Shown here piece after piece: positions 343-23,917 of a stretch of 32,448 nucleotides of DNA. The notes beneath the pieces were generated by a model. It ran no database searches and had not been told where the DNA came from. It saw nothing but the letters and a program-made list of their open reading frames with translations. This stretch comes from Actinomycetes bacterium (lineage in GTDB: Bacteria > Actinomycetota > Thermoleophilia > BMS3ABIN01), in contig JAJYIN010000001.1 of assembly GCA_021790075.1 (NCBI GenBank), positions 11,172 to 43,619 on the forward strand, read 5' to 3'. The translations under genes were made by a program, and so were the position numbers. Numbering within the stretch: position 1 is the first letter of the stretch; each line of letters begins with the position of its first letter.

Positions 343-367
343 GGCTTTATAAAGGGTTTGAACTGAA

Positions 368-1030: not shown

Positions 1031-1149
1031 GAGGAACCGCGGGCCGATCGGAGTATAACCGCCCGGGGTGGCGGCAGCGCCGGAGAGGAACCGGAGGCTG
1101 ATCCGGCAGGCAATCCGGATTCAACTCCGGCAGAGGACTGGTTCCGAGC

Positions 1150-1569: not shown

Positions 1570-1589
1570 CCGGCCGGGTCAGTCATCCC

Positions 1590-4010
1590 ATGAACACGCC
1601 TTCCGGGAAAGCCAGCACCGATTCGGGCGCCACCGGCGTCGTTCGCGTTCTCATCTCCATCACCGGGGTCGTGCAGGGGGTCGGTTTCCGGCCGTTCATC
1701 TACCAGAAGGCGAGTAGCCTGGGCCTGTGCGGCAGTGTCATCAATACGTCGGCCGGGGTAACCATTGACGTCGAAGGCCCGGCGGCGGCCGTCGAAACGC
1801 TGATCTCGTCGCTGCCGGCGGATGCTCCGCCGCGGGCCGTGATCGGCTCCATGGCGGTTGAAGGAGCAAAGCCGGAGGGGCGGCGCGGCTTCGAGATCGG
1901 TGCTTCGGCGCGGCTGGCCGGCCTCTCGCAGCTGGTGTGTCCCGACAGCTGCACCTGCGATGACTGCCTGGCCGAGCTGCGGGAACCGGCCGGCCGGCGT
2001 TTCCGTTATCCCTTTATCAACTGCACCAACTGCGGGCCCCGGTTTACTATCATCGAGGACCTCCCTTACGACCGGCCTTTGACCACAATGAAGAACTTCG
2101 ATATGTGTGATGATTGCCGGGCCGAATACGAAGACCCGGCCGACCGGCGTTTCCACGCCGAGCCCAACGCCTGCCCCGTTTGCGGGCCCAGCCTGTGGCT
2201 GGCCGATCACGAAGGCGTGGCCCTGCCGGTTTCCGACGCCATCGAGGCGGCGGCGGCGGCGCTCAGGGACGGCCAGATACTGGCGATCAAGAGCCTGGGC
2301 GGTTTCCAGCTGGCCTGCCTGGCTACGGATGAGGCCGTGGTGGGGCGCCTGCGGCGGCGCAAGCGCCGGCCCCACAAGCCCTTTGCCCTGATGGCCGCCT
2401 CGATCGAGGACGCCGCGATGATTTGCCATATCTCTGCCCGCGAAGGGGAGTTGCTTGCGGCCGTCGAACGGCCAATTGTTCTCCTGCGCCGTCATGCTGA
2501 TAGCGGCATTGCCGCATCGGTCGCTCCGGGGCTGGCCCATCTGGGAGTGATGCTGCCGTATACGCCGCTCCATTTCCTGCTCATGGACGCCGTGGGCACG
2601 CCCCTGGTGATGACCAGCGGCAACCTCACCGAGGAACCCATCTGCCGCACCAATGCGGAAGCCATTGAGCGCCTGGCGCCGGTGGCCGACCTGTTCCTGC
2701 TTCATAACCGGGGGATCCGTTCCACTTACGACGACAGTGTATTCATGGTGGAGCAGGACCGGCCGCTGGCGATCCGCCGGGCCCGCGGCTATGCGCCCCT
2801 GCCGGTAAGGCTGCCCCGGGACGGCCCGCCGCTTCTGGCCGGCGGCGCCGGCCTCAAGAACACTTTTTGCCTGTCGCTGGGGCGGGATGCCTTTGTCTCC
2901 CAGCACATCGGGGATCTGGAAAACGCCGAGACGCTGCTTCATTACGAGCGCACCGAGAGCCTTTACGAACGCCTGTTCTCCATCCGGCCGGAGGCATTTG
3001 CCTGCGACCGCCATCCTGATTATCTCTCCTCGATATTCATCAAGGAGCGCAACCCGGAGCCCCTGCAGTTTCAGCACCATCGCGCCCATGTGGCTGCCTG
3101 CCTGGCGGATAACGGTTTTACCGGAGCTGCGGTGGGAGTGGCCCTCGACGGCACCGGCCTGGGCGACGACGGCGCTATCTGGGGCGGCGAGTTCTTCACC
3201 GGCGGGCTGGACAGCGGGCTGGAGCGGGCGGCGCACCTGGAGTATTTCCAGCTGCTGGGCGGCGAGGCGGCTATTCACGAACCCTGGCGCACCGCTCTGG
3301 CGCTGGTATGGAAATACGCGCCCGGCGACCTGGACTTTGTGGCCAGGCTGCTGGACATTCCGGGCACCAAGCAGGAACTGCTCATGCGCCAGCTCAAGAC
3401 CGGCCTGAACTGTCCGCAGACTTCCAGCTTTGGGCGCCTGGTCGACGGAGCCGCCGCCCTGGCGCTGGGGCGCCACCAGGCCACTTACGAGGCGCAGGCG
3501 GCGGTGGAGCTGGAAGCAGCCGCCTGGCGGCGGGTGTGGAAGCTGGAGGCTGAAGGCAGGCAGCCTGGCGGCGGCCCTTCGTTTGACGAAGTGGCCACAC
3601 CCGCAATCGACGGCGCTTCCGGCGCTGATGAGCCCAGGTTATCCGACCTCGCTTACCGGTTTTCCCTTAATTTTCAGGCAACGCCATGGACTCTTTCCCC
3701 CCAGAGGTCGATCCTGCGGTTGATCGCCGACCTGAAACAGGAGGAAGATCCGGAAGTGATGGCGCTGCGCTTTCACCTGGGGCTGGCAGAGGCTATAGTA
3801 CGAACCAGCACCAAGCTGGCCGAGCACCATGGGCTCAGGACCGCGGCCCTGAGTGGGGGCGTATTTCAGAACCGGCTGCTGTCGCGGCTAGTGCGGGAAG
3901 GACTGGCCCGTGAGGGGCTGGAAGTGCTCGGCCACCAGCAGCTGCCTCCCAACGATGGCTGCATTTCCTATGGCCAGGCGGTGCTGGCCCGTTACGCTTA
4001 CAAGGAGTAA
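1590..4010 (+). CDS. hypF: Carbamoyltransferase HypF
   Basis: 806 aa. Acylphosphatase motif VQGVGFRPF; two zinc-finger repeats (CDDCLAEL...NCTNCGPRF and CDDCRAEY...ACPVCGPSL); YrdC-like LAIKSLGGFQLAC; Kae1-like C-terminal domain. Confidence 0.96.
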   Translation: MNTPSGKASTDSGATGVVRVLISITGVVQGVGFRPFIYQKASSLGLCGSVINTSAGVTIDVEGPAAAVETLISSLPADAPPRAVIGSMAVEGAKPEGRRGFEIGASARLAGLSQLVCPDSCTCDDCLAELREPAGRRFRYPFINCTNCGPRFTIIEDLPYDRPLTTMKNFDMCDDCRAEYEDPADRRFHAEPNACPVCGPSLWLADHEGVALPVSDAIEAAAAALRDGQILAIKSLGGFQLACLATDEAVVGRLRRRKRRPHKPFALMAASIEDAAMICHISAREGELLAAVERPIVLLRRHADSGIAASVAPGLAHLGVMLPYTPLHFLLMDAVGTPLVMTSGNLTEEPICRTNAEAIERLAPVADLFLLHNRGIRSTYDDSVFMVEQDRPLAIRRARGYAPLPVRLPRDGPPLLAGGAGLKNTFCLSLGRDAFVSQHIGDLENAETLLHYERTESLYERLFSIRPEAFACDRHPDYLSSIFIKERNPEPLQFQHHRAHVAACLADNGFTGAAVGVALDGTGLGDDGAIWGGEFFTGGLDSGLERAAHLEYFQLLGGEAAIHEPWRTALALVWKYAPGDLDFVARLLDIPGTKQELLMRQLKTGLNCPQTSSFGRLVDGAAALALGRHQATYEAQAAVELEAAAWRRVWKLEAEGRQPGGGPSFDEVATPAIDGASGADEPRLSDLAYRFSLNFQATPWTLSPQRSILRLIADLKQEEDPEVMALRFHLGLAEAIVRTSTKLAEHHGLRTAALSGGVFQNRLLSRLVREGLAREGLEVLGHQQLPPNDGCISYGQAVLARYAYKE

Positions 4011-4012
4011 AC

Positions 4013-4282
4013 ATGTGCCTGGCAGTCCCGGCCCGGATAATCGGGCTTGAAAACCAGATGGCGACCGTCGAGCTCGGCGGCCTCACGCGGCAGGCGTCCA
4101 CGGCGCTGCTGCCGGAGGCGGCTCTGGGGGATTACGTGCTCGTCCATGCCGGCTTTGCCATCTCCCTGGTCGACGAGCAGGAAGCACTGGAGACGCTGCG
4201 CCTGTTTGAAGAGATAGCGGTGGCGGAAGCGGATGCCGAAGCCGCGGAGGCGGAAGATTGGGCCGGCCTTGACCAGGACTGA
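4013..4282 (+). CDS. hypC: Hydrogenase assembly chaperone HypC
   Basis: Diagnostic N-terminus MCLAVPARI. 89 aa with an acidic tail. Starts 2 nt after the hypF stop. Confidence 0.93.
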   Translation: MCLAVPARIIGLENQMATVELGGLTRQASTALLPEAALGDYVLVHAGFAISLVDEQEALETLRLFEEIAVAEADAEAAEAEDWAGLDQD

Positions 4283-4283
4283 C

Positions 4284-5378
4284 ATGCGGCTTGCCTTCCT
4301 GGACGATTTCCGGAACCAGGAACACGCCGCCCGGCTGCTCGCGCAGCTCCATGAAGAGCGCCCGCCCGCCGTCCCGCTGAAGATCATGGAAGTATGCGGC
4401 ACGCACACGATGGCGATCTCGCGGCACGGCATCAGGCAGGCGATCCCGGCCTGGGTCCGCCTCATCTCCGGACCGGGCTGCCCCGTCTGCGTCACCGCCA
4501 ACTCCGACATCGACACCTTTATCGAGATGGCCCGGCAGCCGGGCGTGATCGCCGCTACCTTTGGCGACATGCTCAAGGTGCCGGGCACGCGTATGGGACT
4601 GGCCGAGGCCAGGAGCCGGGGCGCGCGCGTCCATGTCGTTTATTCCACCCTCGATGCCCTCAGGCTGGCCCGGGAGAACCAAGGCAAGCAGGTGATCTTC
4701 TTTGGGGTGGGCTTCGAGACAACGGCGCCCACCGTGGCGGCGGCGCTCCTGCAGGCCCGCGAGGAGAACCTCACTAACTTCTTTGTCCTGTCGGTCCACA
4801 AGCTGGTGCCGCCGGCCCTGGAGGCGTTGTGCGCCTCCCCGGAGCTGGCCGTGGACGCCTTCCTCTGCCCCGGTCATGTGTCGGCCATCATCGGCCCGGC
4901 CGCCTACGAGCCGGTCGCACGAGACCACAAGGTGCCTTGTGTTATCTCGGGCTTCGAGCCCGCCGATATCCTCCAGTCACTGGCGATGCTGGCGCAGCAG
5001 GTGGCGGAGGGCCGCTCAGAGGTTGAGCTACAGTATACCCGTGGTGTTCGCGCCGGCGGCAACCCCGCCGCCCGCGAGCTGATGGCGACCGTGTTCGAGC
5101 CGGCTGATGCCCGGTGGCGCGGGCTGGGAACGATACCAGGGAGTGGCCTCAGGCTGCGGCAGGAGTTCTCCGCCTTTGACGCCGCTGCCCGTTTCCCGGT
5201 CGACGCCGGCTATTCACGGGAGCCCAAGGGATGCATCTGCGGCTCCATTCTGACCGGGAAGAAGACCCCACCCGACTGCGCCCTCTTCGGCCGCGGCTGC
5301 ACGCCGGACCACCCCGTGGGACCATGCATGGTATCATCGGAAGGAACCTGCGCCGCCTATTTCCATTATGAGGTTTAG
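4284..5378 (+). CDS. hypD: Hydrogenase maturation Fe-S protein HypD
   Basis: Motifs GPGCPVCV and FGVGFETTAP, plus the C-terminal Cys cluster CICGSIL...PPDCALFGRGCTPDHPVGPCMVSSEGTCAAY. I chose ATG 4284 (MRLAFLDDFRNQE), 1 nt after the hypC stop, over the ORF-track start 4233, which overlaps hypC. Confidence 0.93.
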   Translation: MRLAFLDDFRNQEHAARLLAQLHEERPPAVPLKIMEVCGTHTMAISRHGIRQAIPAWVRLISGPGCPVCVTANSDIDTFIEMARQPGVIAATFGDMLKVPGTRMGLAEARSRGARVHVVYSTLDALRLARENQGKQVIFFGVGFETTAPTVAAALLQAREENLTNFFVLSVHKLVPPALEALCASPELAVDAFLCPGHVSAIIGPAAYEPVARDHKVPCVISGFEPADILQSLAMLAQQVAEGRSEVELQYTRGVRAGGNPAARELMATVFEPADARWRGLGTIPGSGLRLRQEFSAFDAAARFPVDAGYSREPKGCICGSILTGKKTPPDCALFGRGCTPDHPVGPCMVSSEGTCAAYFHYEV

Positions 5379-5511
5379 AGCCTATTTCGACAGGTATATT
5401 CTGCTGCGGTCGGCTGCAAAGCCTTTGGGCTGCGTCCTCGGAGCACAAAGTCCTGACGTACCGCAGAGGACCGGAGCGAACCGGCTGCCGGAATCGTGAG
5501 TCGCGACAAGC

Positions 5512-6531
5512 ATGAATGATGAAGAGAAAAAGGTGATGCTGGCCCATGGCAGCGGCGGCCGCCTGACACAGGAACTGGTGCAGTCGGTATTCGCCGCCGG
5601 CTTGGGCAACCCGATCCTGGACAGGATGGAGGACGCGGCCACGCTGGAGCTGCAGGGCCGGCTGGCGTTCACTACTGACAGCCACGTGGTCTCCCCCCTC
5701 TTCTTCCCCGGCGGCGACATCGGCCGCCTCTCCCTGACCGGCACCGTCAACGACCTGGCCATGATGGGAGCCGTCCCTCTGTACGTTGCCGCCGGTTTCA
5801 TCATCGAGGAAGGGTTTCCACTGGCCGAGTTGGGACGGATCGTCACCTCGATGCGCGAAGCCTCCCGGGAAGCCGGGGTCCAGGTGGTGGCGGGCGATAC
5901 CAAGGTTGTGGAGAGAGGCGCCGCCGACGGCGTTTTCATCACCACCAGCGGCATCGGGCTCATCCCGGACGGCGTCCGCATCAGCGCCGCCGCCGCCAGC
6001 CCCGGCGATGCGGTAATCGTGAGCGGCACCATCGGCGACCATGGCGTGGCCATCCTGAGCCAGCGCCAGGGAATGGATTTTGAAGTGGAGCTACGCAGTG
6101 ATTGCGCTCCCCTGGGGGGACTGGTGCGCGGGATGCTGGAAGCTTCGCGGCGCATCCGGGTGCTGCGCGACCCTACCCGCGGCGGGCTGGCAGCGGTGCT
6201 CAACGAGATCGCTATTGCTTCGGGAGTGTCCGTCGAGATCGACGAGGAACGGATCCCCTTCCGGCCGGAAGTGCGGGCCGCATCCGAACTGCTCGGCCTG
6301 GACCCCCTGGTGATGGCCAACGAGGGCAAGCTGGTGGCCGTGGTGGCGGCGCAGGACGCCGGCAGGGTCCTGGAAGTCATGCGCAGCCACTCTCTGGGGA
6401 GCGAAGCCACCGTCATCGGCCGCGTCGAGACTGCCGCCGGAGAACGGCCGCGCGTGTTCGCCCGGACCATTCTGGGCAGCCGCCGGATCCTGTCGATGCC
6501 ATCCGGCGAGCAGTTGCCCCGCATCTGTTAG
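5512..6531 (+). CDS. hypE: Hydrogenase maturation protein HypE (carbamoyl dehydratase)
   Basis: PurM-like fold signature LAHGSGG and the invariant C-terminal PRIC motif. An in-frame TGA at 5497-5499 bounds the start. Confidence 0.96.
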   Translation: MNDEEKKVMLAHGSGGRLTQELVQSVFAAGLGNPILDRMEDAATLELQGRLAFTTDSHVVSPLFFPGGDIGRLSLTGTVNDLAMMGAVPLYVAAGFIIEEGFPLAELGRIVTSMREASREAGVQVVAGDTKVVERGAADGVFITTSGIGLIPDGVRISAAAASPGDAVIVSGTIGDHGVAILSQRQGMDFEVELRSDCAPLGGLVRGMLEASRRIRVLRDPTRGGLAAVLNEIAIASGVSVEIDEERIPFRPEVRAASELLGLDPLVMANEGKLVAVVAAQDAGRVLEVMRSHSLGSEATVIGRVETAAGERPRVFARTILGSRRILSMPSGEQLPRIC

Positions 6532-6648: not shown

Positions 6649-6832
6649 GTGACTGCTTACATAGACTTGAGCCTAAACCCGTGATGAGCGGGTACGGAGG
6701 AACCAGGTTCCAGGGGCGAATCCGCGCGCAGGGCAGCATGGCAGCATAACATGACAGCCGTGCCGCGGCAGGGCACTTCCAAGCCCGAGCCCGTCAGCTA
6801 ACTCCGCCGGCGTTTGGAAGGCAACGAACAGA
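6649..6832 (+). promoter_or_regulatory. c-di-AMP riboswitch aptamer (ydaO/yuaA = kimA class); ends approximate
   Basis: The conserved blocks of the class appear in the right order: GACTGCTTAC...GAGCC, TACGGAGGAACCA, GGGGCGAATCC, and CCCGAGCCCGTCAGCTAACTCCGCCGGCG. Compare B. subtilis GGGGGACCCA, GGGGUGAAUCC and CCCGAACCCGUCAGCUAACCUCGUAAGCG. It lies upstream of a KimA homolog, the founding genetic context of this class. Confidence 0.85.
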
Positions 6833-6899: not shown

Positions 6900-8714
6900 A
6901 TGTCGTTAAAACGTATGCTGATCGGGCAGCCGATCGAGACCGTGCAGGAGAAGCACGAACGCCTCTCCAAGGTCACAGGGCTGGCCATCTTTTCTTCTGA
7001 CAACCTCTCCTCGGTCGCGTATGCAACCGAGGAGATCCTGCTGGCGCTGATGGTGGCCGGCACGGCGCTGCTCAATTACGCCCTGTTCATCGCCATCGCT
7101 ATCGCAGCTCTGCTGGCAATCATCGCCATTTCGTACTTCCAGACCATCCATGCCTACCCCACGGGCGGCGGTTCCTACATCGTGGCCAAGGATAACCTCG
7201 GCACGGTGTCCGGTCTGGTCGCCGGGGCGGCGCTCCTGATCGACTATGTGCTGACCGTTGCCGTCAGCATTACCGCCGGCATTGCCGCGGTCACCTCGGC
7301 GGTTCCCTCCCTCTACGAGCACAGGGTGCTGCTCTGCCTGATCGCCATCGTCATCCTCATGCTCGGAAACCTCAGGGGATTGCGCGAAGCCGGCAAGTTG
7401 TTCGCTCTGCCTACCTATTTCTTTATCTTCAGCCTGCTGGGACTGATCGGCGTCGGCCTCTTCAAGGCCTTCACCGGCGCCGTGGCGCCCGCGCCCCTGC
7501 CGCCCATCACGGCCGCCGTCAGTTACGTGCCCCTGCTCGTCGTCCTGCGCGCGTTCGCATCCGGCTGCGCGGCCGTGACCGGTATCGAAGCCGTCTCCAA
7601 CGGCGTCAGCGCCTTCAAACCGCCGGAGGCCCGCAACGCCAGCATGACGCTCCTGATAATGGCGGCCCTCCTGGGGATCATGTTTGTCGGCACCTCTTTC
7701 CTGGCCGACCATTTCAACATCATCCCGGTGGAGAACCAGACCGTGCTCTCACTGCTGGCGGCCACGATCTTTTCCAAGGGTGTCATCTATTACCTGATCC
7801 AGGCGGCCACGGCGCTGATCCTGATACTGGCCGCCAATACATCCTTCCAGGACTTCCCCCGCCTGTCGTCCGTGATGGCCGCCGACGGTTTCATGCCCCG
7901 GCAGCTGGGCAGCCGCGGCGACCGGCTGGTGTTTTCCAACGGCATCATCATCCTGGGAGGCTTCGCCGCCGTGCTGGTGATCGTCTTCGGTGGCGATACG
8001 CATCGCCTGATTCCGCTGTACGCGGTCGGCGTCTTTCTCGCCATCACCCTCTCCCAGGCAGGCATGGTCAAGCATTGGCTCAGCAATCGGGAAAAGCACT
8101 GGCGCCGGAATATCCTCATCAACGGCCTGGGGGCGTTTACCACCACCATCGTGGTCATTATCATCGTCTGGTCCAAGTTCCGGGACGGGGCCTGGATCGT
8201 GGTCCTCGCCATTCCGCTGATCGTTTACCTGACCATGCAGGTAAAACGCCATTACGATTCCATCGCCAGGCAGCTGTCGCTGGAAGGGGAGGCGCCCCAG
8301 GCCGAGTTCTCGCACCATTCGGTGATCATACCGGTCTCCGGGGTACAGCGCGCGGTCGTGGGCGCGGTCAGGTACGCCAAGGTGCTGTCTGACGACGTCA
8401 CGGCCGTCTATGTGTGTTTCGACCCGGCAGCTACCGCAAAGGTGAGGGAGAAATGGGAGCAGTACGGCATGGGCGTGCCGCTGCTGGTGCTGGACTCACC
8501 CTACCGCTCGGTGATCGAGCCGCTGATGGAATACATCGAGGGCGTGCGCGAAATCCATCCCGACGGCGTCATCACCGTCATCCTGCCTGAATTCGTGCCC
8601 CAGCGCTGGTGGCATCACCTGCTGCATAACCAGACCGCGCTGCTGATCAAAGGTATTTTACTGTTCAAAAAAGGTGTGGTGGCCACCAGCGTGCCGCTGC
8701 ACCTGCGGGCCTAG
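6900..8714 (+). CDS. kimA: KimA-type K+/H+ symporter (APC superfamily, YdaO family)
   Basis: 604 aa, similar in size to B. subtilis KimA. N-terminal signature LIGQPIE...ERLSKVTGLAIFSSDNLSSVAYATEEIL, about 12 TM helices and a C-terminal cytosolic domain. GAGG RBS lies 6 nt upstream of the ATG. Preceded by a c-di-AMP riboswitch. Confidence 0.85.
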   Translation: MSLKRMLIGQPIETVQEKHERLSKVTGLAIFSSDNLSSVAYATEEILLALMVAGTALLNYALFIAIAIAALLAIIAISYFQTIHAYPTGGGSYIVAKDNLGTVSGLVAGAALLIDYVLTVAVSITAGIAAVTSAVPSLYEHRVLLCLIAIVILMLGNLRGLREAGKLFALPTYFFIFSLLGLIGVGLFKAFTGAVAPAPLPPITAAVSYVPLLVVLRAFASGCAAVTGIEAVSNGVSAFKPPEARNASMTLLIMAALLGIMFVGTSFLADHFNIIPVENQTVLSLLAATIFSKGVIYYLIQAATALILILAANTSFQDFPRLSSVMAADGFMPRQLGSRGDRLVFSNGIIILGGFAAVLVIVFGGDTHRLIPLYAVGVFLAITLSQAGMVKHWLSNREKHWRRNILINGLGAFTTTIVVIIIVWSKFRDGAWIVVLAIPLIVYLTMQVKRHYDSIARQLSLEGEAPQAEFSHHSVIIPVSGVQRAVVGAVRYAKVLSDDVTAVYVCFDPAATAKVREKWEQYGMGVPLLVLDSPYRSVIEPLMEYIEGVREIHPDGVITVILPEFVPQRWWHHLLHNQTALLIKGILLFKKGVVATSVPLHLRA

Positions 8715-8796: not shown

Positions 8797-9939
8797 TCAA
8801 CCTCCGGTGGACGGCGCCGTCCCCAGGATGACCTGGATGTTCATCTGGTTGCCGCCCCTCTGAACCGTCAGGTTGACTTTATCGCCTGGTTTGAGCGTGT
8901 TAATGATCCCTGCCAGATCGGAATCGCTGACCAGAGGCGTGCCGTTGGCGCTCGTAATCACATCGTTGGGCTTGAGGCCGGCTGCTGCCGCCGGCGAGCC
9001 GCTGGCGACCTGGCTCACCAGGACGCCCTTGGTGATATTGAGGCCGAGGTGGGCCGCCACCGCGGGATCCAGCGGCGCATAGGTAATGCCCATATAGGGA
9101 TGCACCACATGGCCGGTGGCCACAATCTGGTCCGCTAACGACTTGGCGGTATTGACCGATATAGCGAAGCCGATCCCCTGCGCGACCGCTCCGGATGTGT
9201 CCGAGCTCGCCACCAGCGTGTTTATGCCGATCACCTGGCCGCTCAGGGTGACCAGCGGTCCGCCGGAATTGCCCGGGTTAATGGGGGCGTCGGTCTGGAT
9301 CACATCGAACAGGTACGGCCCCGGTTGATTGGGTGTGGTGGCCGGTTCCTGCACCGCCCGGCCCAGGGCGCTGATCACGCCCGCGGTGACGGTCGGCCCG
9401 CCCGGCAGCGCCAGCGCGTTTCCGATCGCCACTACCCACTCCCCTACCTGCCCTTTGCTGGAATCACCCAGCGAAGCCACCGGCAGGTTGTCACCGGTGA
9501 TCTGCACCACGGCTATGTCAGACAGGCTGTCGCCGCCGATGATCTTGCCGCTGAAGGAACGCCCGTCCGGCAGGGTCACCAGCAGGCTCTGGGCGCCCTC
9601 GATCACATGATTGTTGGTGAGGATATGGCCCTGGTCGTCATAGATGACGCCGGACCCGACACCGGCAGGTATCGTGTAAGGCTGGTTGAACTGTCCGGAT
9701 ACCTGCTGCTGGTTGGTGATCCGGACGACTGCCGGTTTCACCGCCTGGGTCGCCTGGATAATCGCGGCGCTAAAACCACCGGCGCTGGGAATGTTCGGCG
9801 GCGGCGCCAGATTTCCCGGTGCGGTGCCGGTTGGGGATGTGCCGGTTGTCTGCTGATCATCGCAGCCGCTCACCAACCCGGTGACCAGAGCCGCGATCAG
9901 CAAGATACCGGCGGCAAGGACAGTTACCTTTCTCATCAT
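8797..9939 (-). CDS. htrA: HtrA/DegP-family serine protease with PDZ domain, predicted lipoprotein
   Basis: Catalytic triad contexts TNNHVIEG, DIAVVQI and GNSGGPL, with a C-terminal PDZ domain (GVLVSQVASGSPAAAAGLKPNDVI). Start taken at the ATG at 9939, preceded by AAGGGGGA. Signal peptide ends in the lipobox LVSGC. Confidence 0.9.
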   Translation of the reverse strand: MMRKVTVLAAGILLIAALVTGLVSGCDDQQTTGTSPTGTAPGNLAPPPNIPSAGGFSAAIIQATQAVKPAVVRITNQQQVSGQFNQPYTIPAGVGSGVIYDDQGHILTNNHVIEGAQSLLVTLPDGRSFSGKIIGGDSLSDIAVVQITGDNLPVASLGDSSKGQVGEWVVAIGNALALPGGPTVTAGVISALGRAVQEPATTPNQPGPYLFDVIQTDAPINPGNSGGPLVTLSGQVIGINTLVASSDTSGAVAQGIGFAISVNTAKSLADQIVATGHVVHPYMGITYAPLDPAVAAHLGLNITKGVLVSQVASGSPAAAAGLKPNDVITSANGTPLVSDSDLAGIINTLKPGDKVNLTVQRGGNQMNIQVILGTAPSTGG

Positions 9940-10045
9940 GTCCCCCTTCGAGTCTCCCGTGGCTTCCAACAGATTTGAGCTAGGCTTTTTATACCCGGAG
10001 GGCCCCGGTCAAAACCGGCCGGCTCCCTGGCGCTCGAGGCCGCCG

Positions 10046-11923
10046 TTATTTTACCTTGAATTTCTTCTCTCCGATCTGCTCGATTCGCAAATTGAGATCG
10101 GCCGGACCTGCTTTGAGGCTGGCCCATTCACGCCTGATCACGTTGATGTGATTATCAGGCCTGATTAAATCCATCCAAGATTTTATGGAGTAATACTCAG
10201 GATATGAAATCTCTTTCGCATGGATGTATTGTCCCTCAAAGTTGCTGATACCAACGGGAAGATTGTAAAATTCTACCTCGCTGCCCGCGGGAAATTTGTT
10301 AACATTTTCCTTAATTCTGGTCAGCAGGAGGCCGGTAAAATCACTGTCCGTCTTCCATTCGTCAGCCCGATTGATCAAATAGGTCGATAAGGGAAACGAG
10401 AGAGCCAAAGCCGCCGCGAGAAGGAAGGCAACTATTCTCGCTGCGTTTCTTGTCCGACGTCTGGATGACCATGATTGCACTGCTGATTTTGCGGCTTTTT
10501 GGCTTTCAAGCAGAAACACTGAAACCAGAATACTGAAAGGGACCAGAGGGAAGTACGCGTTTCTGTGAGCGAAAGTCAAGGTTGGTAGATAAATCAGAAG
10601 AGGGACGACCAGCCAAATGACGGCAAACAGCACCAGCTTTCCGTAGATTGAATAACGATAGTAATTTATCAGTTTCCGGCGTTGATCAAACGCAATCAGA
10701 ATCAGCCCGCATACAACTATGAGCAAGGGAATCAGGCTTCGCAAGCTTTGTTTAACCGACTGATTAAAGAAGCTGTTCATTATGGGGCCGGAAGCGAAAA
10801 TCAAGCCAAAAAACAAAAGAGTGATTGTGAAATAGACAGAATATGCCGCGTTGCGCTCTTTCCTGTTCCATGTTTCCCAGTTCTTGAACAGGCGCCATGC
10901 ATAAAAAAAGAGAAAAAGGGTTGCCGACCCCAGAAACAGATAAACCAGAGTTTTCCATGAATATAAAGAAAAGGGCCGAAAGAGCCAGCCCAGTATATCG
11001 CCCGGGTACAGGAGGTCGGAAAAATACATGGAGCTGATTTTGGAAAAAGCCTCAACGTTGTTTTCAGGAAGGTGAACCCTCCAATGATATCCTCCCATAC
11101 CATGCAAAACCATAGTGCGCCAAACCAGGAAAATGCCGGTGGCAACCAGATATGGAGCGCAGGTTTTTAAAATGGCGAGAACGTCTCTTTTGCAAACTTT
11201 CCCGGCAGAAAAGATGGCCAGGTAAGCGATGAGCAAAGCAGGAAGCGCGAAGGCGATTTCTTCGGAGCCGAGCGCCAGGAGATAAGAAACCAGGGAGGGA
11301 ACAAGATACCTTTTTCTGTGTGGTGAAGCATCGACATATTTAATAAAAAACAGAAAGGCAATGAGCATAAAAATTGCCGGTAGAATGGTCTGCCGCCGGG
11401 AAGATGCGGCCAGACTTTCGAGCACAATTGGGTGAACTGTAAACACGAGTCCACTTAGAATAGAAGCAGTGCGGCTCCGGCTCAGGATGAAAACGACGTA
11501 GACGACCAGAAACACAGCGGAAAGATGAAGAAGAAAGTCGGTCAAGTGATACCCAAACGGGTTGAGACCCCACAAAGCGTAATCGAGGCTGTAGGATAAA
11601 ACCGAAACCGGCCTGTAAGCTACGGCAACATCAAAGCCTGTTCCCGCCATCGTGTACTTGCCAAAAATCCTCACCACGTCGTGAAGACCATGGATTCTGC
11701 CAGTGTCGATCAGGCTGAGGGTGTCGCTTCCCACAAAGGAATAACCAAATATGTCCTTGTAAAAGACGAGGGCAATCAGAGCCAGAGATGCAAGAATAAC
11801 AAGGAAGGCGGTTTTTCCAGCAACAGGCTCTTTGCGCGCGCGCTCTTTGGCATAAGTCCCGGTTGCTGATAGTTTGGCTATGTTCTCTTTGCCGGTTGCC
11901 ATTTCAGAAGAGATGCTTCCCAA
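10046..11923 (-). CDS. Polytopic membrane protein, PMT/TMTC-like GT-C glycosyltransferase (family assignment tentative)
   Basis: 625 aa, more than 10 predicted TM helices. First-loop acidic motif FVGSDTLSLID. YRPVSVLSYSLDYALWGLNPFGYHLTDFLLH resembles the RPL..LS...G.NP.G.H..N.LLH signature of PMT_2/TMTC-type enzymes. TTG start with GGGAGA 9 nt upstream (alternative ATG at 11902). Sampled line 10201 has 25/60 G+C. Confidence 0.6.
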   Translation of the reverse strand: MGSISSEMATGKENIAKLSATGTYAKERARKEPVAGKTAFLVILASLALIALVFYKDIFGYSFVGSDTLSLIDTGRIHGLHDVVRIFGKYTMAGTGFDVAVAYRPVSVLSYSLDYALWGLNPFGYHLTDFLLHLSAVFLVVYVVFILSRSRTASILSGLVFTVHPIVLESLAASSRRQTILPAIFMLIAFLFFIKYVDASPHRKRYLVPSLVSYLLALGSEEIAFALPALLIAYLAIFSAGKVCKRDVLAILKTCAPYLVATGIFLVWRTMVLHGMGGYHWRVHLPENNVEAFSKISSMYFSDLLYPGDILGWLFRPFSLYSWKTLVYLFLGSATLFLFFYAWRLFKNWETWNRKERNAAYSVYFTITLLFFGLIFASGPIMNSFFNQSVKQSLRSLIPLLIVVCGLILIAFDQRRKLINYYRYSIYGKLVLFAVIWLVVPLLIYLPTLTFAHRNAYFPLVPFSILVSVFLLESQKAAKSAVQSWSSRRRTRNAARIVAFLLAAALALSFPLSTYLINRADEWKTDSDFTGLLLTRIKENVNKFPAGSEVEFYNLPVGISNFEGQYIHAKEISYPEYYSIKSWMDLIRPDNHINVIRREWASLKAGPADLNLRIEQIGEKKFKVK

Positions 11924-11929
11924 ACTGAC

Positions 11930-13471
11930 TTATCTCCCTTTCACTTCATAGAGCGCTTCTGCGACCGGAAAAGGCTCGCCATGTTCAAAATCCTGGTAAG
12001 TGACGGCTTTATATTCCAAGGGAAAGGGTCCGCCCAGCTCTTTGATATTTGGCAGTGGCTTAAACGGCAGGGTTACCGAAATCAGGATCTGCGCCCCGGG
12101 GTTCTCTTCCTCCGCCCGCCTCAAAAGACCGGGCAGCGTTTCCCTGGTCGCCCCGATCAGCCTGATATCAGTGCGCTCGCTATCGATTTTCTGGGCATAA
12201 AGCAACCCCGTATATGAATCCCAATCGGCCAGGATTACCGCATCCTGCCTGGAGTGATCAAAAACTGTATTAATATATTGCCTCATGCCATAATCATTTC
12301 TGTGGTTGACGAAGTCCCATGTTCTGGTAACTCCCAGCAACAGCACCGCGAAATAAACGGCTCCAATGATGATCACCGGCAGATGGCGCAGGCGTCCCCG
12401 GCCCAGGTAAGCCTCACCCATGCACATGATGAGAAAAACAGAAAACCCTGTCCACACGGAGAAGTACATCAGTAAAGACAGATGATAAAAGGGATAGTCG
12501 CCGCTAAAGAAAAACAGGAAAAACATGTGCGCCACCATGGCCGCGGCGAGAAATAAAAGGGGGCGCCACAGGTTCCGCAGCGCCGGCCACACAGCCGGAT
12601 ACAAAAGCACGATGGCCGGTCCAAATACGAGAAAGGCATAAGACGGGAAATAGCTTTGCTGAACTACCTGTACAAGCAGGTCCTTGGTCTGAACAAGCCC
12701 CGGCAGCTTCAGCGTCTCATGGCCTTCCGCCCGGGCATCGCTGGCAGAAACATACCTGATAAAAGACGTAACAGAGTCAATTTGCTGATAATCGATTAGC
12801 GGATGCATTGCGCTGCGAATCGGCAGAAACAAGTAAGGACTGATCCCTAAAAGGAAAAAAGCAAGAGTCAATAAAAGCGGCTTGGTCCGGAATAGCCCGC
12901 GCCACGGCCCCAGAAAAAAGATACCGGCAACCAGGACCGGTAAAAAAAACAATAAAGTGATGTGCCAGGTTATACCTGCGCCGAACAGCCCCGCCCCCAC
13001 CCATACCAGGCGATTGTCTCCGTTTCGTCGCCAAATAAGTAACAGTGTCAGCAGAATTGCGCTTATGGCTGGTACAGCATTGTACGGATTGGCCACCGCC
13101 GCGTGTGACCACCAAAGTCCGCCAACCGCCAGGGTGATGCTGGACACCAGAGCAGGCAACATACGGCCGAACAACGTATAACTAAGAGCATAAACAGCAA
13201 CTACGCCAATGGCGCCGATGACCGCAGATAAAAAATTTACGCGGACGGCGACATTTCCGACAGGGGCGAGCGAAAAAAGCCAGGCCACGATATCGTACGC
13301 CGGCGAACCGGGCGCATGGGCAATTCCCATGGTGGCGGCGCTGGCCTGCCAGTCGGCGACATCGTGGGCAAGTACGTCCGGAGCGACGGTATAAGAATAA
13401 AGGGCGAGGGTGGCCAAGCCCAGGAGAAAACCAGCGATAACGCTGGGCTTGAGAAAGAAAGCTTTCATCAC
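11930..13471 (-). CDS. DUF2723/TMEM260-like GT-C membrane glycosyltransferase, paralog B
   Basis: 513 aa polytopic protein. N-terminal loop APDVLAHDVADWQASAATMGIAHAPGSPAY matches the DUF2723 pattern (acidic loop, then G-I-x-H-x-P-G-x-P). Colinear with the upstream paralog. The start abuts the upstream stop codon. Confidence 0.75.
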   Translation of the reverse strand: MMKAFFLKPSVIAGFLLGLATLALYSYTVAPDVLAHDVADWQASAATMGIAHAPGSPAYDIVAWLFSLAPVGNVAVRVNFLSAVIGAIGVVAVYALSYTLFGRMLPALVSSITLAVGGLWWSHAAVANPYNAVPAISAILLTLLLIWRRNGDNRLVWVGAGLFGAGITWHITLLFFLPVLVAGIFFLGPWRGLFRTKPLLLTLAFFLLGISPYLFLPIRSAMHPLIDYQQIDSVTSFIRYVSASDARAEGHETLKLPGLVQTKDLLVQVVQQSYFPSYAFLVFGPAIVLLYPAVWPALRNLWRPLLFLAAAMVAHMFFLFFFSGDYPFYHLSLLMYFSVWTGFSVFLIMCMGEAYLGRGRLRHLPVIIIGAVYFAVLLLGVTRTWDFVNHRNDYGMRQYINTVFDHSRQDAVILADWDSYTGLLYAQKIDSERTDIRLIGATRETLPGLLRRAEEENPGAQILISVTLPFKPLPNIKELGGPFPLEYKAVTYQDFEHGEPFPVAEALYEVKGR

Positions 13472-15106
13472 TTAGGGAGTCGTATCCTTCACCTCAAAAA
13501 GCTGCAAAGCGGCAGGGAGCGGTTCACCGTGAGAGTAGTCCTGGTAGGTCTTGCCCTTGATGCTCACAAAGATTGGTTGGCTCAGTGCCACAATATTGTT
13601 CGCCTGGTCCATTGGCAAAGTGCGGGAAAGCAATATCTGGTTTCTAGGATATTCCGACTCAAGCTGCGACACTTCCTCGCGCCACACGGCCGGTTGCAGC
13701 GATACTTTGAGAGTCAAATCAGGCCGCTCACCATCAACCTTCTGGGCGTAAAGAAGCGCGGGATAAGAGTCCCAGTCGGCCAGAATGACAGCATCCGGCC
13801 GAGCGGTCGCGAAAACATCGTCCACGTAGTGCCGCATGCTTACATCATTGGCATGGTTAACAAAACTCCAGACTCTTGGGATGCCGAGGGCCAGCATCGC
13901 AAAAAAGAACACTCCGGTCGCGACAACAAGCAACCGGCGCAACTTTTCGCCTTCCAGATAGCTCTCACCAACAGTCATGATGAGATAGACCGAGAAACCG
14001 ACCCAAATGGAAAAATAAAACAGCAGCGGCAGATAGTACTGGTCATACATGCCGCTGATCAGTATGACCATCGTCATCTGCAGCACCATGCCTGCCAGTA
14101 AAAAGAGCAGAATACGGACGAATGGTTTGATTCTTGGCCACACGGCCGGATACAGCAGGATAATCGCCGGCCCGAACACCAGAAAGGCGTAAGAGGGATA
14201 ATAACTGCTGCGGACTACTTCGGTAAGCCGGGCCTTGACGTCTCCCAGCCCCGGCACCTGGATCACTTCATGCCCTGGGTTTGGCCGCGTTTCTGCGCCT
14301 GAAAGATAATCCTTGAAAGAAGAAAACGAATTAACCTTCGTAAAGGCAACAACCGCGGGATTCATGGCGCTGCGGATCGGGACGTACGCATAAAAAGAGA
14401 ATCCCACAATGAACATGCCAATAGTCAACGCTATCGGCAGGGGTTTTAGCAGCCGGCGCCAGGGACCAAGCACAAATATTCCTACCACCATCACGGGAAG
14501 GAAAAAAAGCATAGTCGTGTGCCACGAATAACCAAATCCCGCCAGCAGCGCTCCCCCCCAGACCAACCGGTTGTCGCCGCTTTTACGCCAAAGCAACAAG
14601 AGAATCAATAATACGGCCATGATCAACACGATGGTGTTGTAGGGCACTGCCACCGAAGCCTGCGACCACCACAAGCGCGCCACCCCTAATGTCACGGCCG
14701 ATACGAGCGCCGGCAACATGCGTCCGAAAATAATCATCATGAGGGCGTAGGCGGCCACCACCCCCGCGGCGCTGGTGATAACCGAGACGTAGCTGATCCT
14801 GGCCGCCGCCGAGCCGATCGGAACCAGGCTAAAGAGCCATGAGACGATGGTGTACGCCGGAGTTCCAGGCCCGTGGGTAATGCCGAGGGTCGCTCCCGCC
14901 GCCTGCCATTCGCCCGAGTCATGGGCCAACACATCGGGAGCCAGAGTAATGGTGTAAATAATTATGGCAGCCAGTCCCAGAACAACTCCTGCCACCGTGA
15001 CCGGTGTGCGGAAAAAGGCTTTCCGCTGCTCCTCCCCGGCCGGATGCGCCAGCTTTTGTGTTTCCTTGCGACAGGCAGGGGCTGCGGGGATGGTTGTGGG
15101 TAACAT
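13472..15106 (-). CDS. DUF2723/TMEM260-like GT-C membrane glycosyltransferase, paralog A
   Basis: 544 aa polytopic protein. Loop APDVLAHDSGEWQAAGATLGITHGPGTPAY. AGGAG lies 8 nt upstream of the ATG. Shares blocks such as FGRMLPALVS, GDNRLVW, YPSYAFLVFGPAI.LLYPAVWP and AVILADWDSY..LLYAQK with paralog B. Confidence 0.78.
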   Translation of the reverse strand: MLPTTIPAAPACRKETQKLAHPAGEEQRKAFFRTPVTVAGVVLGLAAIIIYTITLAPDVLAHDSGEWQAAGATLGITHGPGTPAYTIVSWLFSLVPIGSAAARISYVSVITSAAGVVAAYALMMIIFGRMLPALVSAVTLGVARLWWSQASVAVPYNTIVLIMAVLLILLLLWRKSGDNRLVWGGALLAGFGYSWHTTMLFFLPVMVVGIFVLGPWRRLLKPLPIALTIGMFIVGFSFYAYVPIRSAMNPAVVAFTKVNSFSSFKDYLSGAETRPNPGHEVIQVPGLGDVKARLTEVVRSSYYPSYAFLVFGPAIILLYPAVWPRIKPFVRILLFLLAGMVLQMTMVILISGMYDQYYLPLLFYFSIWVGFSVYLIMTVGESYLEGEKLRRLLVVATGVFFFAMLALGIPRVWSFVNHANDVSMRHYVDDVFATARPDAVILADWDSYPALLYAQKVDGERPDLTLKVSLQPAVWREEVSQLESEYPRNQILLSRTLPMDQANNIVALSQPIFVSIKGKTYQDYSHGEPLPAALQLFEVKDTTP

Positions 15107-15240
15107 GGAACGACTCCTGCTTCTGCTACTTGCTGATGTTAGCGGGGTGTAAACCTGCCCATACTTCTATCGCTGCAACGTCCGCTGATATTCCTGCTGA
15201 TTATTGCTAATCTGTACGCCTTCCTTCATCAGAATCATCG

Positions 15241-15258
15241 CCCGGACCGTCGTCCGGG
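15241..15258 (-). terminator. GC hairpin 20 nt downstream of the ftsK stop (possible U-tail-less terminator or attenuator)
   Basis: Perfect CCCGGAC-CGTC-GTCCGGG, a 7-bp stem. No U tract on either strand. Confidence 0.3.
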
Positions 15259-15277
15259 TCGTCAAAATCAGGGCTCA

Positions 15278-17830
15278 TTAATCGTCCGCACTGTAGTCAT
15301 CTGCCTCGTAGTCAGGCTCAATATCGATTCCGTACCGGTCTGACAGGCCGGCGGCACCGCTGGCCCCGGCACCCAAGGCCGTACTGCCGGCTGCGCTGCG
15401 CGCTCCTGCGAGGGCCAGCAGGCGGTCGAGGTCGGCCTCGGTCATCAGCACGCGCCGCGGCTTGCTGCCCTCGTAGCCGCTGATGACGCCTCTTTTCTCC
15501 AGCATGTCGATGAGGCGGCCGGCGCGGGTATAGCCCACCCGGAGCCGGCGCTGGAGGAAGGAGACTGAGGCGGTGCCAGTGCCTACCACCAGCTGCATGG
15601 CCTCCACCAGCAGGTCGTCCTCGTCCGCGGGCAGCTTCTCCTCGCTGCCCTCTTCCTTTCCCTCCAGAAGATCGAGATTGAAATCGGGCTTTTTCTGGCT
15701 CTTGCAGCGGTCGGTGAGCAGCTTGACCTCTTCCTCGGAAATGTAGGCGCCCTGGATGCGCTGCAGCTGCGAGGATCCCAGCGGGCTGAAGAGCATATCG
15801 CCCTGGCCCAGCAGGCTCTCGGCGCCGGTCGTGTCCAGAATTACACGCGAGTCTATCTGTGATGATACCGCAAATGCGATGCGGGAAGGAACATTGGCCT
15901 TGATCATGCCGGTGATGACGTCCACTGACGGACGCTGGGTGGCCAGCACCAGGTGTATCCCCACCGCCCGCGATTTCTGGGCCAGGCGGATGATTGCGTC
16001 CTCGACCTCGCCCGGCGCCACCATCATCAGGTCGGCCAGCTCGTCGACGACCAGCAGGATGTACGGCAGCGGCTTCTGCCCGCGCTCGCCCCGCACCCGG
16101 TTGAGCTCGTCCAGATGCCTCGCCTTGACCAGCTGCATCTGGCCATAGCGGTTCTCCATCTCCGCCACCAGGTTGGCCAGCACATTGGCGGCGTCCTTCA
16201 TCACGGTCACCACCGGCGTTAGCAGGTGAGGGATGCCCTCAAAATGGTTGAGCTCCACCCGCTTGGGATCGATGAGGATCATGTTGACGTCGTCCGGTGA
16301 GCTGTGCAGCAGGATGGAAGAGATGATGCAGTTGATGCAGCCGCTCTTGCCCGAACCGGTGGTGCCCGCCACCAGCAGGTGGGGCATCTGGGCCAGATCC
16401 GTGTAAACGGCCTTGCCGGCGATATCCTTTCCCAGCCAGACCATCAGCGGCCCGGAGCCGGCGGGAAAGTCTCGGTAGATGTCGCCCAGGGTCACCAGGT
16501 TGGGGCTGGAGTTGGGCACCTCGACGCCCACCGCCGATTTCCCTGGAATCGGCGCCAGGATACGAATATCGGTGGTGGCCAGCGCGTAGGCGATGTCGTT
16601 CTTCAGGTTGCTGACCTTGGAAACCTTGATGCCGGGGGCCAGTTGCAGTTCGTAACGCGTCACCCGGGGACCCGATACGGTGCCCGCCACCCGCGCCTCG
16701 ATGCCAAAACTGGCCAGCGTCTCCGTGAGCACGCGGCTGATGCGGTCGGCGCTCTCCGGCCCTCCCTGCTGGCGCTCGGAACTCTTCCGGAGTAGATCGG
16801 GGTTGGGGAGGATGTAACCCGACTCCGCTTCCGCCTCGCTGCGGGGAAAGAGCTCGTCCTGAACCGGCGCGCCGGAGAGCGCCGCCGCCGTCCCAGCCGC
16901 CACTGCGGCTTGTTCCTTTAGCAGGGCGGCGCCAGATTCTTCGTCTACCACCGCCAGGGCCGGCTTGCGGCCGGCGAAGATGTCGGGATAGGTATCGGCG
17001 CCGTCGAGCGGGGAACCCCCGCCGCCATCGGCGTCAAGCTTCGTCTCGCCCAGCGCCGGGCGTTCGACCGCGGCTGCAGGATCCACGCCAAAGGGGACCG
17101 CTCCGCCTGCGCCGGCCCCTGCCGCGGCAGCGCTGTCCGCCGGCAGCCGGGCGGCCTCGCCGGCACGGCGCTCCGCCAGGTTCTGTCCCAACTGCCAGGT
17201 CGTGCGGCGGGCGCTCACCGCTGCCCGGCGCGCCCCCTTGCCCGAAGCCAGCAGCACCGTTCTCACCGAAGCCCCGGTGATGAGAAAGGCGGCGCCCAGC
17301 AGCAGGAAAACGACGGCGATGGAACTGCCCACATCGCCTATCAGAGATCCGGTCACCCAGTAGAGGGTGTCGCCGACGACGCCGCCATGGGACGGGAAGT
17401 AAGAGCTGTCAAAAAAGGACTGATGAGCCAGACTGTTGCCCATCACCGAAAAAGTGTTGGCGCCTGCTATCAGGAACAGGGCGGCGGTCAGGAACGCCAT
17501 GCCCGCCTGGAAACCACGTGGTCCCCGCGGCATCTCCGGAAAGATGAGGAAGCTGCCCGCCAGAACAAGGGCCGGCGGGCTCAGGTAGACCAGCCACCCG
17601 GACAGAAAGCGGAGACCGTCCTGGGCGGCGCCGCCCACCAGTCCGCCGGACCAGCCCAGGTAAAGCACCAGCGCCATGAAACAGCCGGCGGCGGCCAGCG
17701 CCAGGCCGGCCAGCTCGCGCAGGCGCCTGAGGTCGCGCGCCTTTGCCTTGGCGGTCTTCTTGCCGCGGCCGGCTTTGCCCCTCCTCCTGCTTTTGGCTGC
17801 CTTCCTGTATTTGGCCGTCCTGGCTGCCAC
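15278..17830 (-). CDS. ftsK: DNA translocase FtsK/SpoIIIE
   Basis: 850 aa. Basic N-terminus plus TM helices, an Ala/Gly-rich linker, Walker A GTTGSGKS, Walker B LLVVDELADL, and a winged-helix gamma domain (SVSFLQRRLRVGYTRAGRLIDMLE). GTG start with GGAGAGGGA just upstream. About 50-aa acidic tail after gamma. Confidence 0.95.
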   Translation of the reverse strand: MAARTAKYRKAAKSRRRGKAGRGKKTAKAKARDLRRLRELAGLALAAAGCFMALVLYLGWSGGLVGGAAQDGLRFLSGWLVYLSPPALVLAGSFLIFPEMPRGPRGFQAGMAFLTAALFLIAGANTFSVMGNSLAHQSFFDSSYFPSHGGVVGDTLYWVTGSLIGDVGSSIAVVFLLLGAAFLITGASVRTVLLASGKGARRAAVSARRTTWQLGQNLAERRAGEAARLPADSAAAAGAGAGGAVPFGVDPAAAVERPALGETKLDADGGGGSPLDGADTYPDIFAGRKPALAVVDEESGAALLKEQAAVAAGTAAALSGAPVQDELFPRSEAEAESGYILPNPDLLRKSSERQQGGPESADRISRVLTETLASFGIEARVAGTVSGPRVTRYELQLAPGIKVSKVSNLKNDIAYALATTDIRILAPIPGKSAVGVEVPNSSPNLVTLGDIYRDFPAGSGPLMVWLGKDIAGKAVYTDLAQMPHLLVAGTTGSGKSGCINCIISSILLHSSPDDVNMILIDPKRVELNHFEGIPHLLTPVVTVMKDAANVLANLVAEMENRYGQMQLVKARHLDELNRVRGERGQKPLPYILLVVDELADLMMVAPGEVEDAIIRLAQKSRAVGIHLVLATQRPSVDVITGMIKANVPSRIAFAVSSQIDSRVILDTTGAESLLGQGDMLFSPLGSSQLQRIQGAYISEEEVKLLTDRCKSQKKPDFNLDLLEGKEEGSEEKLPADEDDLLVEAMQLVVGTGTASVSFLQRRLRVGYTRAGRLIDMLEKRGVISGYEGSKPRRVLMTEADLDRLLALAGARSAAGSTALGAGASGAAGLSDRYGIDIEPDYEADDYSADD

Positions 17831-23189: not shown

Positions 23190-23221
23190 GCCAATGGCCA
23201 GGTTCTTCTCGATTTCTGTCT

Positions 23222-23836: not shown

Positions 23837-23917
23837 AGCCTTGCAAAGTCTAGCATGAATCCGGAATTCAGGCGCATTCCCCCGGGTTCTCAGGCTGGTG
23901 CTTTCCCGTACGATTCA

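Follow-up and report, generated by a model that had tools for sequence, protein, structure and literature searches.

Three membrane glycosyltransferase genes beside ftsK in a Thermoleophilia genome: a TMEM260-like tandem pair probably exchanged in place and a neighbor probably gained later

Known GT-C enzymes and the proteins encoded at the locus

TMEM260 is a metazoan protein O-mannosyltransferase whose acceptors are serines and threonines in IPT domains, and its human homolog has been linked to disease. Other protein O-mannosyltransferases of the GT-C type, Pmt1-Pmt2 and POMT1-POMT2, are heterodimers that use polyprenyl-phosphate-mannose at the extracytoplasmic face of the membrane, while actinobacterial Pmt (e.g., Rv1002c of Mycobacterium tuberculosis) mannosylates Ser/Thr/Pro-rich linkers of lipoproteins. 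TMTC1-4 (GT105) combine a PMT_2/DUF1736 membrane module with C-terminal TPR repeats. At the level of genomes, xenologous (in situ) displacement has been described, as has the exchange of glycan-gene cassettes between housekeeping flanks, for example at O-antigen and capsule loci. Here, we analyze three adjacent minus-strand genes, G3, G2, and G1, that lie between ftsK and htrA in a 32,448-nucleotide stretch of a Thermoleophilia genome (GenBank assembly GCA_021790075.1, contig JAJYIN010000001.1). We refer to this whole stretch as the window, and coordinates without a locus number are positions within it. Our overall account, which we regard as fairly probable, is that the three genes encode GT-C enzymes, that a foreign G3-G2 pair replaced a resident homolog in place, and that G1 was a later and separate addition.

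G3 (13472-15106, 544 aa) is the first member of a tandem pair and is followed by G2 (11930-13471, 513 aa) and then by G1 (10046-11923, 625 aa, starting at TTG 11923 or ATG 11902). The stop of G3 directly abuts the start of G2, and a gap of 6 nt separates G2 from G1. This tight packing and the open reading frame (ORF) coordinates had been described in an earlier note on the same DNA, and we reproduced them exactly. G3 and G2 both match PF11028 (TMEM260-like, formerly DUF2723; cutoff 24.2 bits), with scores of 65.9 bits (E 5e-18) and 59.2 bits (E 6e-16), respectively. In addition, a profile of the DUF2723 family, built from 22 members, matches the solved TMEM260 structure 9rql_A with an E-value of 1.9e-22. 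The match to this human protein pairs profile positions 13-458 with residues 28-482, covering all of the membrane-embedded GT-C module and the first part of the C-terminal domain. Within this alignment, D52 of TMEM260 corresponds to D63 of G3, the family-invariant aspartate of an AHD(S/V)(G/A)(E/D)W motif that G2 keeps as well. A D52A mutant of TMEM260 is inactive (PMC10214176). As judged from the alignment, G2 and G3 both retain this predicted catalytic aspartate.

Structural models point in the same direction. When the AlphaFold2 model of G3 (predicted local distance difference test [pLDDT] score 82, predicted template modeling [pTM] score 0.85) was searched with Foldseek, all 25 matches with E <= 1e-3 were GT-C enzymes, and GT-C enzymes filled each rank to E 5e-3, among them PglB, STT3, ArnT, ALG9/12, Pmt4, DPY19, and Emb. 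The same fold is predicted for G2 from its 54% identity to G3 over the full length. The likeness to TMEM260 (9rql-9rqn) consists of the PF11028 matches, the profile alignment across the GT-C module, and the kept aspartate. Yet G2 and G3 differ from TMEM260 in being bacterial proteins of about 515-545 aa with low identity to it, encoded by tandem paralogs linked to ftsK. They also differ in domain composition. Pfam gave no TPR match in G2 or G3, and the G3 model has a short alpha/beta domain after residue ~420, where TMEM260 has its C-terminal TPR. The earlier note called bacterial DUF2723 proteins functionally uncharacterized, and the literature that we searched gives them no function beyond the description "distant homologs in bacteria." An exact-sequence look-up of G2 among public assemblies returned no record.

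G1 belongs elsewhere among GT-C enzymes. No Pfam or NCBIfam family matched it at E <= 0.1, and thus there is no PMT_2 (PF13231), DUF1736 (PF08409), or TPR match. The N-terminal ~45% of G1 is homologous to bacterial proteins with TPR repeats, with phmmer E-values down to 1e-19 over 20-45% of G1; PMT_2 (P0025, 29.6 bits) or DUF1736 (P0015) is present in some of these homologs. The motifs held in common, located in the N-terminal ~280 residues, are an acidic loop-1 residue, YRP, NPFGYHLTN..LH, VHP..E, and SKE; the invariant residues of G1 are D67, R104-P105, H164-P165, and E222. With the AlphaFold2 model of G1 (pLDDT 79, pTM 0.82), Foldseek returned GT-C enzymes at every significant rank (ArnT, STT3, AglB, DPY19, PglB). 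Compared via these bacterial look-alikes, G1 resembles TMTC proteins in its N-terminal motifs and GT-C fold but differs from them in having neither a Pfam match nor TPR, in its extra transmembrane helices, and in a C-terminal domain with a conserved YSIKSW. That C-terminus is a small mixed domain in the model, and close full-length homologs are also free of TPR. The earlier description of G1 as "PMT/TMTC-like" stands for the homology of the N-terminal module; it does not extend to a PMT_2, DUF1736, or TPR match in G1 itself.

The family around G1 is large and diverse. Its profile collected 4,070 cluster representatives at E <= 1e-30, including many full-length proteins of 500-660 aa, and the nearest homologs of G1 are merely about 33-41% identical to it. 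Among solved structures, a sequence search with a TPR-free G1 alignment found no match, and with a wide alignment the matches were swamped by TPR proteins. G1 is not a diverged third DUF2723 paralog, because a profile-profile comparison of the G1 and DUF2723 families found no significant relation. BLASTP likewise detected no similarity between G1 and G3, the downstream membrane protein of locus L026, or the partner protein of locus L002, both of which are described below. We conclude that G1 is a GT-C enzyme of a large, uncharacterized, non-TPR family and is TMTC-like solely via its N-terminal module. The proposal that the locus encodes three GT-C products is borne out by PF11028 for G2 and G3, by the TMEM260 profile match, and by the AlphaFold2 and Foldseek matches of G3 and G1. 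One relative of G1 has a suggestive setting. In locus L001 (9043-11968), the homolog P0003 directly follows a UbiA-family prenyltransferase in a polysaccharide-type locus; genes for heptose and dTDP-sugars and for the ATPase of a Wzt-type ABC transporter are close by, a context that hints that P0003 acts in a polyprenyl-phosphate-sugar-dependent glycan pathway.

Composition of the three genes and the ancestral gene after ftsK

The three genes stand out sharply in composition. Windowed G+C is 0.46-0.55 across positions ~10000-15000 vs about 0.62-0.68 elsewhere in the window, and the G+C content of third codon positions (GC3) is 0.655 in G3, 0.599 in G2, and 0.526 in G1, the lowest value in the window. 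For comparison, the 19 other window genes have a GC3 of 0.826 ± 0.025 with a minimum of 0.784, a background for which two ORFs with spurious N-terminal extensions were corrected and a 451-aa UbiX-UbiE ORF of low GC3 was removed. Against it, the z-scores are -7 for G3, -9 for G2, and -12 for G1. The earlier note had given five sampled 60-nt G+C counts (25, 31, 30, 40, and 45) and had argued from other membrane-protein genes of the window that the drop goes beyond hydrophobic codon bias. The counts were reproduced exactly, and the argument holds, given the z-scores of -7 to -12 and the undepressed GC3 of membrane-protein controls (KimA-like, 0.841; MurJ, 0.872; TauE, 0.824). Furthermore, Karlin codon-usage distances to the window background are 0.43-0.63 for G1-G3 vs 0.15-0.39 for all other genes. 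In short, the composition of G1-G3 is strongly foreign. Measured as a gap to the mean GC3 of ftsK, rnj, dapA, and dapB, the deficit is -0.185 for G3, -0.24 for G2, and -0.31 for G1, whereas the same gap for single-copy DUF2723 genes in relatives is only -0.10 to +0.035.

Comparison with related genomes revealed what normally occupies this position. In metagenome-assembled genomes (MAGs) of Thermoleophilia/Gaiellales, the gene order is GGDEF-flavoprotein-ubiE-polyprenyl synthase-dapB-dapA-rnj-ftsK-DUF2723-hypE. With each GTDB species represented by a single genome, a scan yielded 16 loci (L010-L025), all from Thermoleophilia or "Actinomycetes" MAGs, and 14 of the 16 have ftsK followed in synteny by a single DUF2723 gene; ftsK is also directly upstream of DUF2723 in L003-L007 and L108. 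The spacer between the two genes is 12-41 nt in most relatives vs 171 nt in the window (15107-15277, minus strand), where it is of lower G+C. These observations show that a single TMEM260-like gene after ftsK is an ancestral, housekeeping-context gene in this Thermoleophilia-type clade. The locus is not an island within an otherwise uninterrupted block, because relatives already hold DUF2723 there. The earlier proposal of an acquired island in a conserved block fails on this point, since the slot holds a single DUF2723 gene of native G+C in about 16 related lineages. Nor do the genes lie "inside" a dapBA-rnj-ftsK block. They sit at its downstream edge, and what survives of that description is that they adjoin ftsK and come before htrA. 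The conserved upstream anchor of the slot is ftsK itself (15278-17830, minus strand; Pfam FtsK_alpha, FtsK_SpoIIIE, and FtsK_gamma).

Downstream of the slot, gene content is more fluid. The interval between DUF2723 and hypE is variable in relatives and may contain nothing, htrA, kimA, TrkH-TrkA-TrkH, or small ORFs. The order DUF2723-htrA recurs in L009, L016, L019, and L020. More generally, the interval repeatedly holds K+-transport genes or htrA (e.g., L011:6809-11151, L013:11103-12908, and L108:11558-13369). In two MAGs, there is a second DUF2723 copy between rplA-rplJ and rpoB (L015:4442-7876 and L017:4789-7893). In both, this copy is followed by a NosD/right-handed beta-helix protein of ~435 aa, a conserved adjacency that makes the protein a possible acceptor candidate.

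Origin of the tandem pair and of G1

The G3-G2 pair, with a spacer of 0-16 nt, was found in the window, in L008 (a European Nucleotide Archive [ENA] contig), in L009 (a Logan assembly contig), in L003 (a relative with 52% G+C), and in L026 and L027. In all five lineages that carry it, the G3-type gene has a GC3 of 0.63-0.67, despite flanks that range from ~0.55 in L003 to 0.80-0.84 in L009 and the window. We compared a housekeeping tree (neighbor-joining with 200 bootstraps, built from 1783 ungapped columns of a concatenated alignment of FtsK, RNase J, DapA, and DapB) with a tree of the DUF2723 proteins. The housekeeping tree unites the window with L003, L012, L016, L019, and L020 in 200/200 bootstraps; L003 groups with L012, L016, L019, and L020 to the exclusion of the window in 180/200, and the window and L003 come together in just 16/200. 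In the tree of DUF2723 proteins, a 200/200 clade made up of the single genes from L012, L016, L019, L020, L013, L010, and L024 leaves out the pair genes that the window and L003 carry, and G3-type and G2-type genes form 200/200 clades of their own. The single genes that G2-type genes tend to join come from L011 (127/200), L108, and P0052; L108 falls in the other housekeeping clade. Identity tells a similar story. To the L003 pair, identity is 77% for G3 and 80% for G2, where single-copy orthologs, used as a calibration, lead one to expect about 66% at this housekeeping divergence (residual standard deviation 0.058). To the single genes of the relatives closest by housekeeping sequence, it is only 47-55%.

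Because the gene and housekeeping trees conflict and the composition is foreign, in-place replacement is the most economical explanation. The G3-G2 pair, translationally coupled and belonging to a different DUF2723 sub-lineage, would have displaced the resident single gene at its own position, with a lower-GC relative as the source. The composition of the pair would fit a genome of about 53-56% G+C, and the replacement would have preceded the split between the window and L009 lineages. Between these two, synonymous divergence (dS) is 0.13-0.14 for the pair and a similar 0.19 for the ftsK end, and the ratio of nonsynonymous to synonymous divergence (dN/dS) is 0.22 for G3 and 0.14 for G2; both genes are intact and under purifying selection. 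A foreign homologous cassette in the same position, with conserved flanks and no mobility genes, resembles xenologous displacement. It differs from cassette exchange at O-antigen and capsule loci in that the unit is one or two GT-C genes and not a multigene polysaccharide locus. The case exposes a trap in the calling of genomic islands, namely, that a compositionally foreign segment may be the in-place replacement of a resident homolog. Other pair-bearing contigs have peculiarities of their own. In L003 (10001-15334), the pair and six small unannotated downstream ORFs have a G+C of 0.55-0.61 vs 0.48-0.53 in the flanks, and the region may be foreign there too. L027 carries a fragment of a Mutator-family (IS256-like) transposase ~1 kb downstream of the pair (4381-4644, minus strand), and in L026 the pair is followed by a convergent, partial polytopic protein of 371 aa with no Pfam match (2981-4096, minus strand).

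G1 has a different distribution. L009 aligns with the window from 15623 to 11922, an interval that takes in the ftsK end, G3, and G2 with its stop, at 94.5% identity. After the G2 stop, L009 has 111 unrelated nucleotides, and the alignment then resumes at window position 10043, in the htrA leader. The sequence from ~10043 downward (GGCCTCGAGCGCC...GGCCGGTTTTGACCGGGGCC) is thus shared with L009, where it follows G2 and the unrelated 111-nt spacer. The difference between the two contigs is exactly the G1 ORF, with clean junctions that lack flanking repeats, and the G1-htrA spacer (9970-10045, minus strand) marks the downstream edge of the indel. G1 is absent from the other pair-bearing contigs L003, L009, L026, and L027, and the trio was found only in the window and in L008, which are 99.7% identical. 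A metagenome scan for G1 relatives, made with a narrower G1-family alignment, recovered 80 loci with heterogeneous gene contexts, and in none of them (0/80) was there a DUF2723 gene. Since the pair lacks G1 elsewhere and G1-family loci hold no DUF2723, there is no conserved three-gene module, contrary to the earlier view of the three genes as one unit. Instead, a later, clean insertion of one gene would have placed G1 between G2 and htrA, making it a strain-level accessory gene. We infer that this was a gain, and not a loss in L009, from the outgroups together with the extreme composition of G1. Genes that are tightly packed and similar looking may, it seems, differ in their time of arrival.

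In other genomes, G1-type genes keep company of a different sort. At four loci on unrelated metagenome contigs (L002:11833-13818, L038:9780-11792, L029:4200-6143, and L031:2350-4011), a full-length G1-type gene is followed by a polytopic protein of ~660 aa that belongs to another family. These partner proteins are homologous to one another (35-49% identical), have no Pfam match, and carry an N-terminal YLGDDSW motif. The arrangement looks like a conserved two-gene unit, the partner of which is absent from the window.

How probable, then, are other histories? The earlier note envisaged that three GT-C enzymes were acquired horizontally as one cassette, work together on an envelope protein or polymer, and would constitute a new system. 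Tight co-directional packing, a shared GT-C fold, and the foreign composition of all three genes speak in its favor, and G1-family genes elsewhere often adjoin a second polytopic GT-C-like protein, so that adjacency may carry functional meaning. However, the trio is confined to the window and L008 while four other lineages carry the pair without G1, the 80 loci of G1 relatives are devoid of DUF2723, GC3 falls in steps (0.66, 0.60, and 0.53), G1 is a separate indel, and the slot was occupied by DUF2723 ancestrally. We consider such a cassette quite unlikely. A strictly vertical history, in which an old DUF2723 duplication was followed by differential loss and low G+C reflects gene-specific constraint or lagging composition, strikes us as doubtful but less so. 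It would account for the exact ancestral position of the pair and the absence of mobility marks; moreover, identity to the L003 pair (77-80%) is near that of the housekeeping genes (about 78-80%), and the single DUF2723 gene of some relatives has a GC3 below its flanks, by up to -0.10. Yet the GC3 deficit of the pair (0.19-0.24; z of -7 to -9) is far beyond this single-copy range, at third positions that should track mutation bias. In addition, the housekeeping data join the window to L003 in only 16 of 200 bootstraps, and the fully supported (200/200) clade of the nearest relatives' single genes excludes the pair, which means that several independent losses would be needed. Finally, mis-assembly of a metagenome could have joined two related populations. 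The window is probably from a MAG, and related populations with 52-65% G+C share synteny that could favor chimeric joins. L008, from a different ENA sample (99.7% identical), nevertheless repeats the high-GC ftsK end followed by low-GC G3-G2-G1, and L009 (Logan; 94.5%) repeats the ftsK end followed by G3-G2-htrA. Because these independent assemblies agree, we rejected a chimera, and we regard an artifact of this kind as extremely improbable.

A number of points nonetheless weigh against replacement of the resident gene by a foreign pair with later gain of G1. The trees are neighbor-joining trees of partial MAG loci and not model-based maximum-likelihood trees, and the pair genes and their nearest single relatives form one clade in merely 104/200 bootstraps. 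Hidden paralogy, that is, old duplication with differential loss, yields a topology identical to that of transfer. No donor lineage with an amino acid identity above 77-80% was found, and the host background composition was drawn from the 32-kb window alone. In L003, G+C is higher in the region of the pair than in the flanking sequence, which bears on the direction and number of transfers, and loss of G1 in L009, instead of gain in the window lineage, is still formally conceivable. The borders, too, are unremarkable. At either end of the three genes, we found no recombination scars, meaningful flanking repeats, or att-like sequences. There is no integrase or transposase among the annotated neighbors of the three genes, and no tRNA was found in the window, in agreement with the earlier report that mobility, tRNA, and donor-synthesis genes are missing nearby. 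The ftsK-G3 spacer is 85-93% identical to that of L009 and too diverged to align with L003 or L027, and mapping of the cassette borders through it in pair-bearing lineages gave no end points. Windowed identity between the window and L009 has no clear recombination break (ftsK end, 93-95%; pair, 92-98%), with lower values confined to the variable htrA leader. A scan of 9700-15500 for consensus promoters and terminators turned up no convincing site, with counts within about two standard deviations of shuffles. Of the marks of horizontal acquisition, then, deviant composition, tree incongruence, and presence/absence of G1 are in evidence, while an empty slot and mobility marks are not. Replacement by a foreign pair, followed by a strain-level insertion, is a known type of event, and the genes themselves are new members of known GT-C families.

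Possible function and the surroundings of the locus

By homology, each of the three enzymes would act on the outer side of the cytoplasmic membrane, where a protein or envelope polymer would receive a sugar from a polyprenyl-phosphate carrier. G3 and G2 are a tightly linked paralog pair in five lineages, with the catalytic motif in both. By analogy, they would most likely form a heterodimer like Pmt1-Pmt2 or act as two enzymes that split acceptor or sugar specificity, and G1 would add or alter one further glycosylation step. The resemblance to Pmt1-Pmt2 lies in the pairing of paralogs that both appear to keep the aspartate and in a neighbor, HtrA, that has a Pmt-type linker. It is limited by the fact that G2 and G3 have no PMT or MIR domains and that the similarity of G3 to Pmt structures is at the level of fold only. 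A donor-synthesis gene was not found in the window.

The gene for HtrA, a lipoprotein serine protease (8797-9969, minus strand; Pfam Trypsin_2 and PDZ), forms the downstream flank of the three genes and has a native GC3 of 0.785. Its N-terminal ~65 residues contain a lipobox cysteine followed by a Ser/Thr/Pro/Ala-rich linker, an arrangement also present in L009, L016, L019, and L020. As a speculation, this neighboring lipoprotein, with its Ser/Thr/Pro-rich linker, is a candidate acceptor. One could go further and suppose that the ftsK-linked TMEM260-like gene is central to a housekeeping pathway of protein O-glycosylation that is clade-wide in Thermoleophilia, in which lipoproteins with Ser/Thr/Pro-rich linkers, HtrA among them, are acceptors, G3 and G2 are an obligate heterodimer in some lineages, the cassette is exchanged among species at this one locus to vary a surface glycan, and G1-like add-ons extend that glycan. 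We think this extended scenario unlikely. If true, the O-glycosylation role would give bacterial DUF2723 its first assigned function. Regardless, a clade-wide, ftsK-linked gene with the catalytic aspartate kept and a tandem pair in some lineages offers an entry point into bacterial DUF2723 proteins. The conserved linkage of a TMEM260-like gene to ftsK across the clade is a useful lead; otherwise the locus is ordinary and shows no new mechanism.

The rest of the window is conventional. Beyond ftsK, the minus strand carries rnj, dapA, dapB, a polyprenyl synthase gene, ubiE, and genes for a UbiX-type flavoprotein, a DUF72 protein, and a GAF-GGDEF protein, followed by lepA and murJ. The polyprenyl synthase gene (21508-22494, minus strand) sits in the quinone context of ubiE and UbiX. 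An apparent UbiX-UbiE fusion of 451 aa (22491-23846, minus strand) proved to be an artifact. In this stretch, ubiE (~22491-23186) occupies one frame and a separate flavoprotein gene (23222-23836) another, and the long ORF is due to a spurious N-terminal extension that runs across the latter. On the plus strand, the ORF of a TauE-family gene (30880-32043) is apparently over-extended at its 5' end into murJ. A second, smaller dip in G+C (0.54-0.58 in 1-kb windows) coincides with the ~420 intergenic nucleotides that separate lepA from the GAF-GGDEF gene (~27045-27468), in which there was no Rfam match. At the other end of the window, hypA-B-F-C-D-E (16-6531, plus strand) is followed by a gene for a KimA-like APC transporter (K+ transporter; 6900-8714, plus strand). 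Directly 5' of the KimA-like gene lies a cyclic di-AMP (ydaO-type) riboswitch (6660-6827, plus strand; Rfam RF00379, 76.5 bits vs a gathering score of 38), which is a known regulatory pairing.

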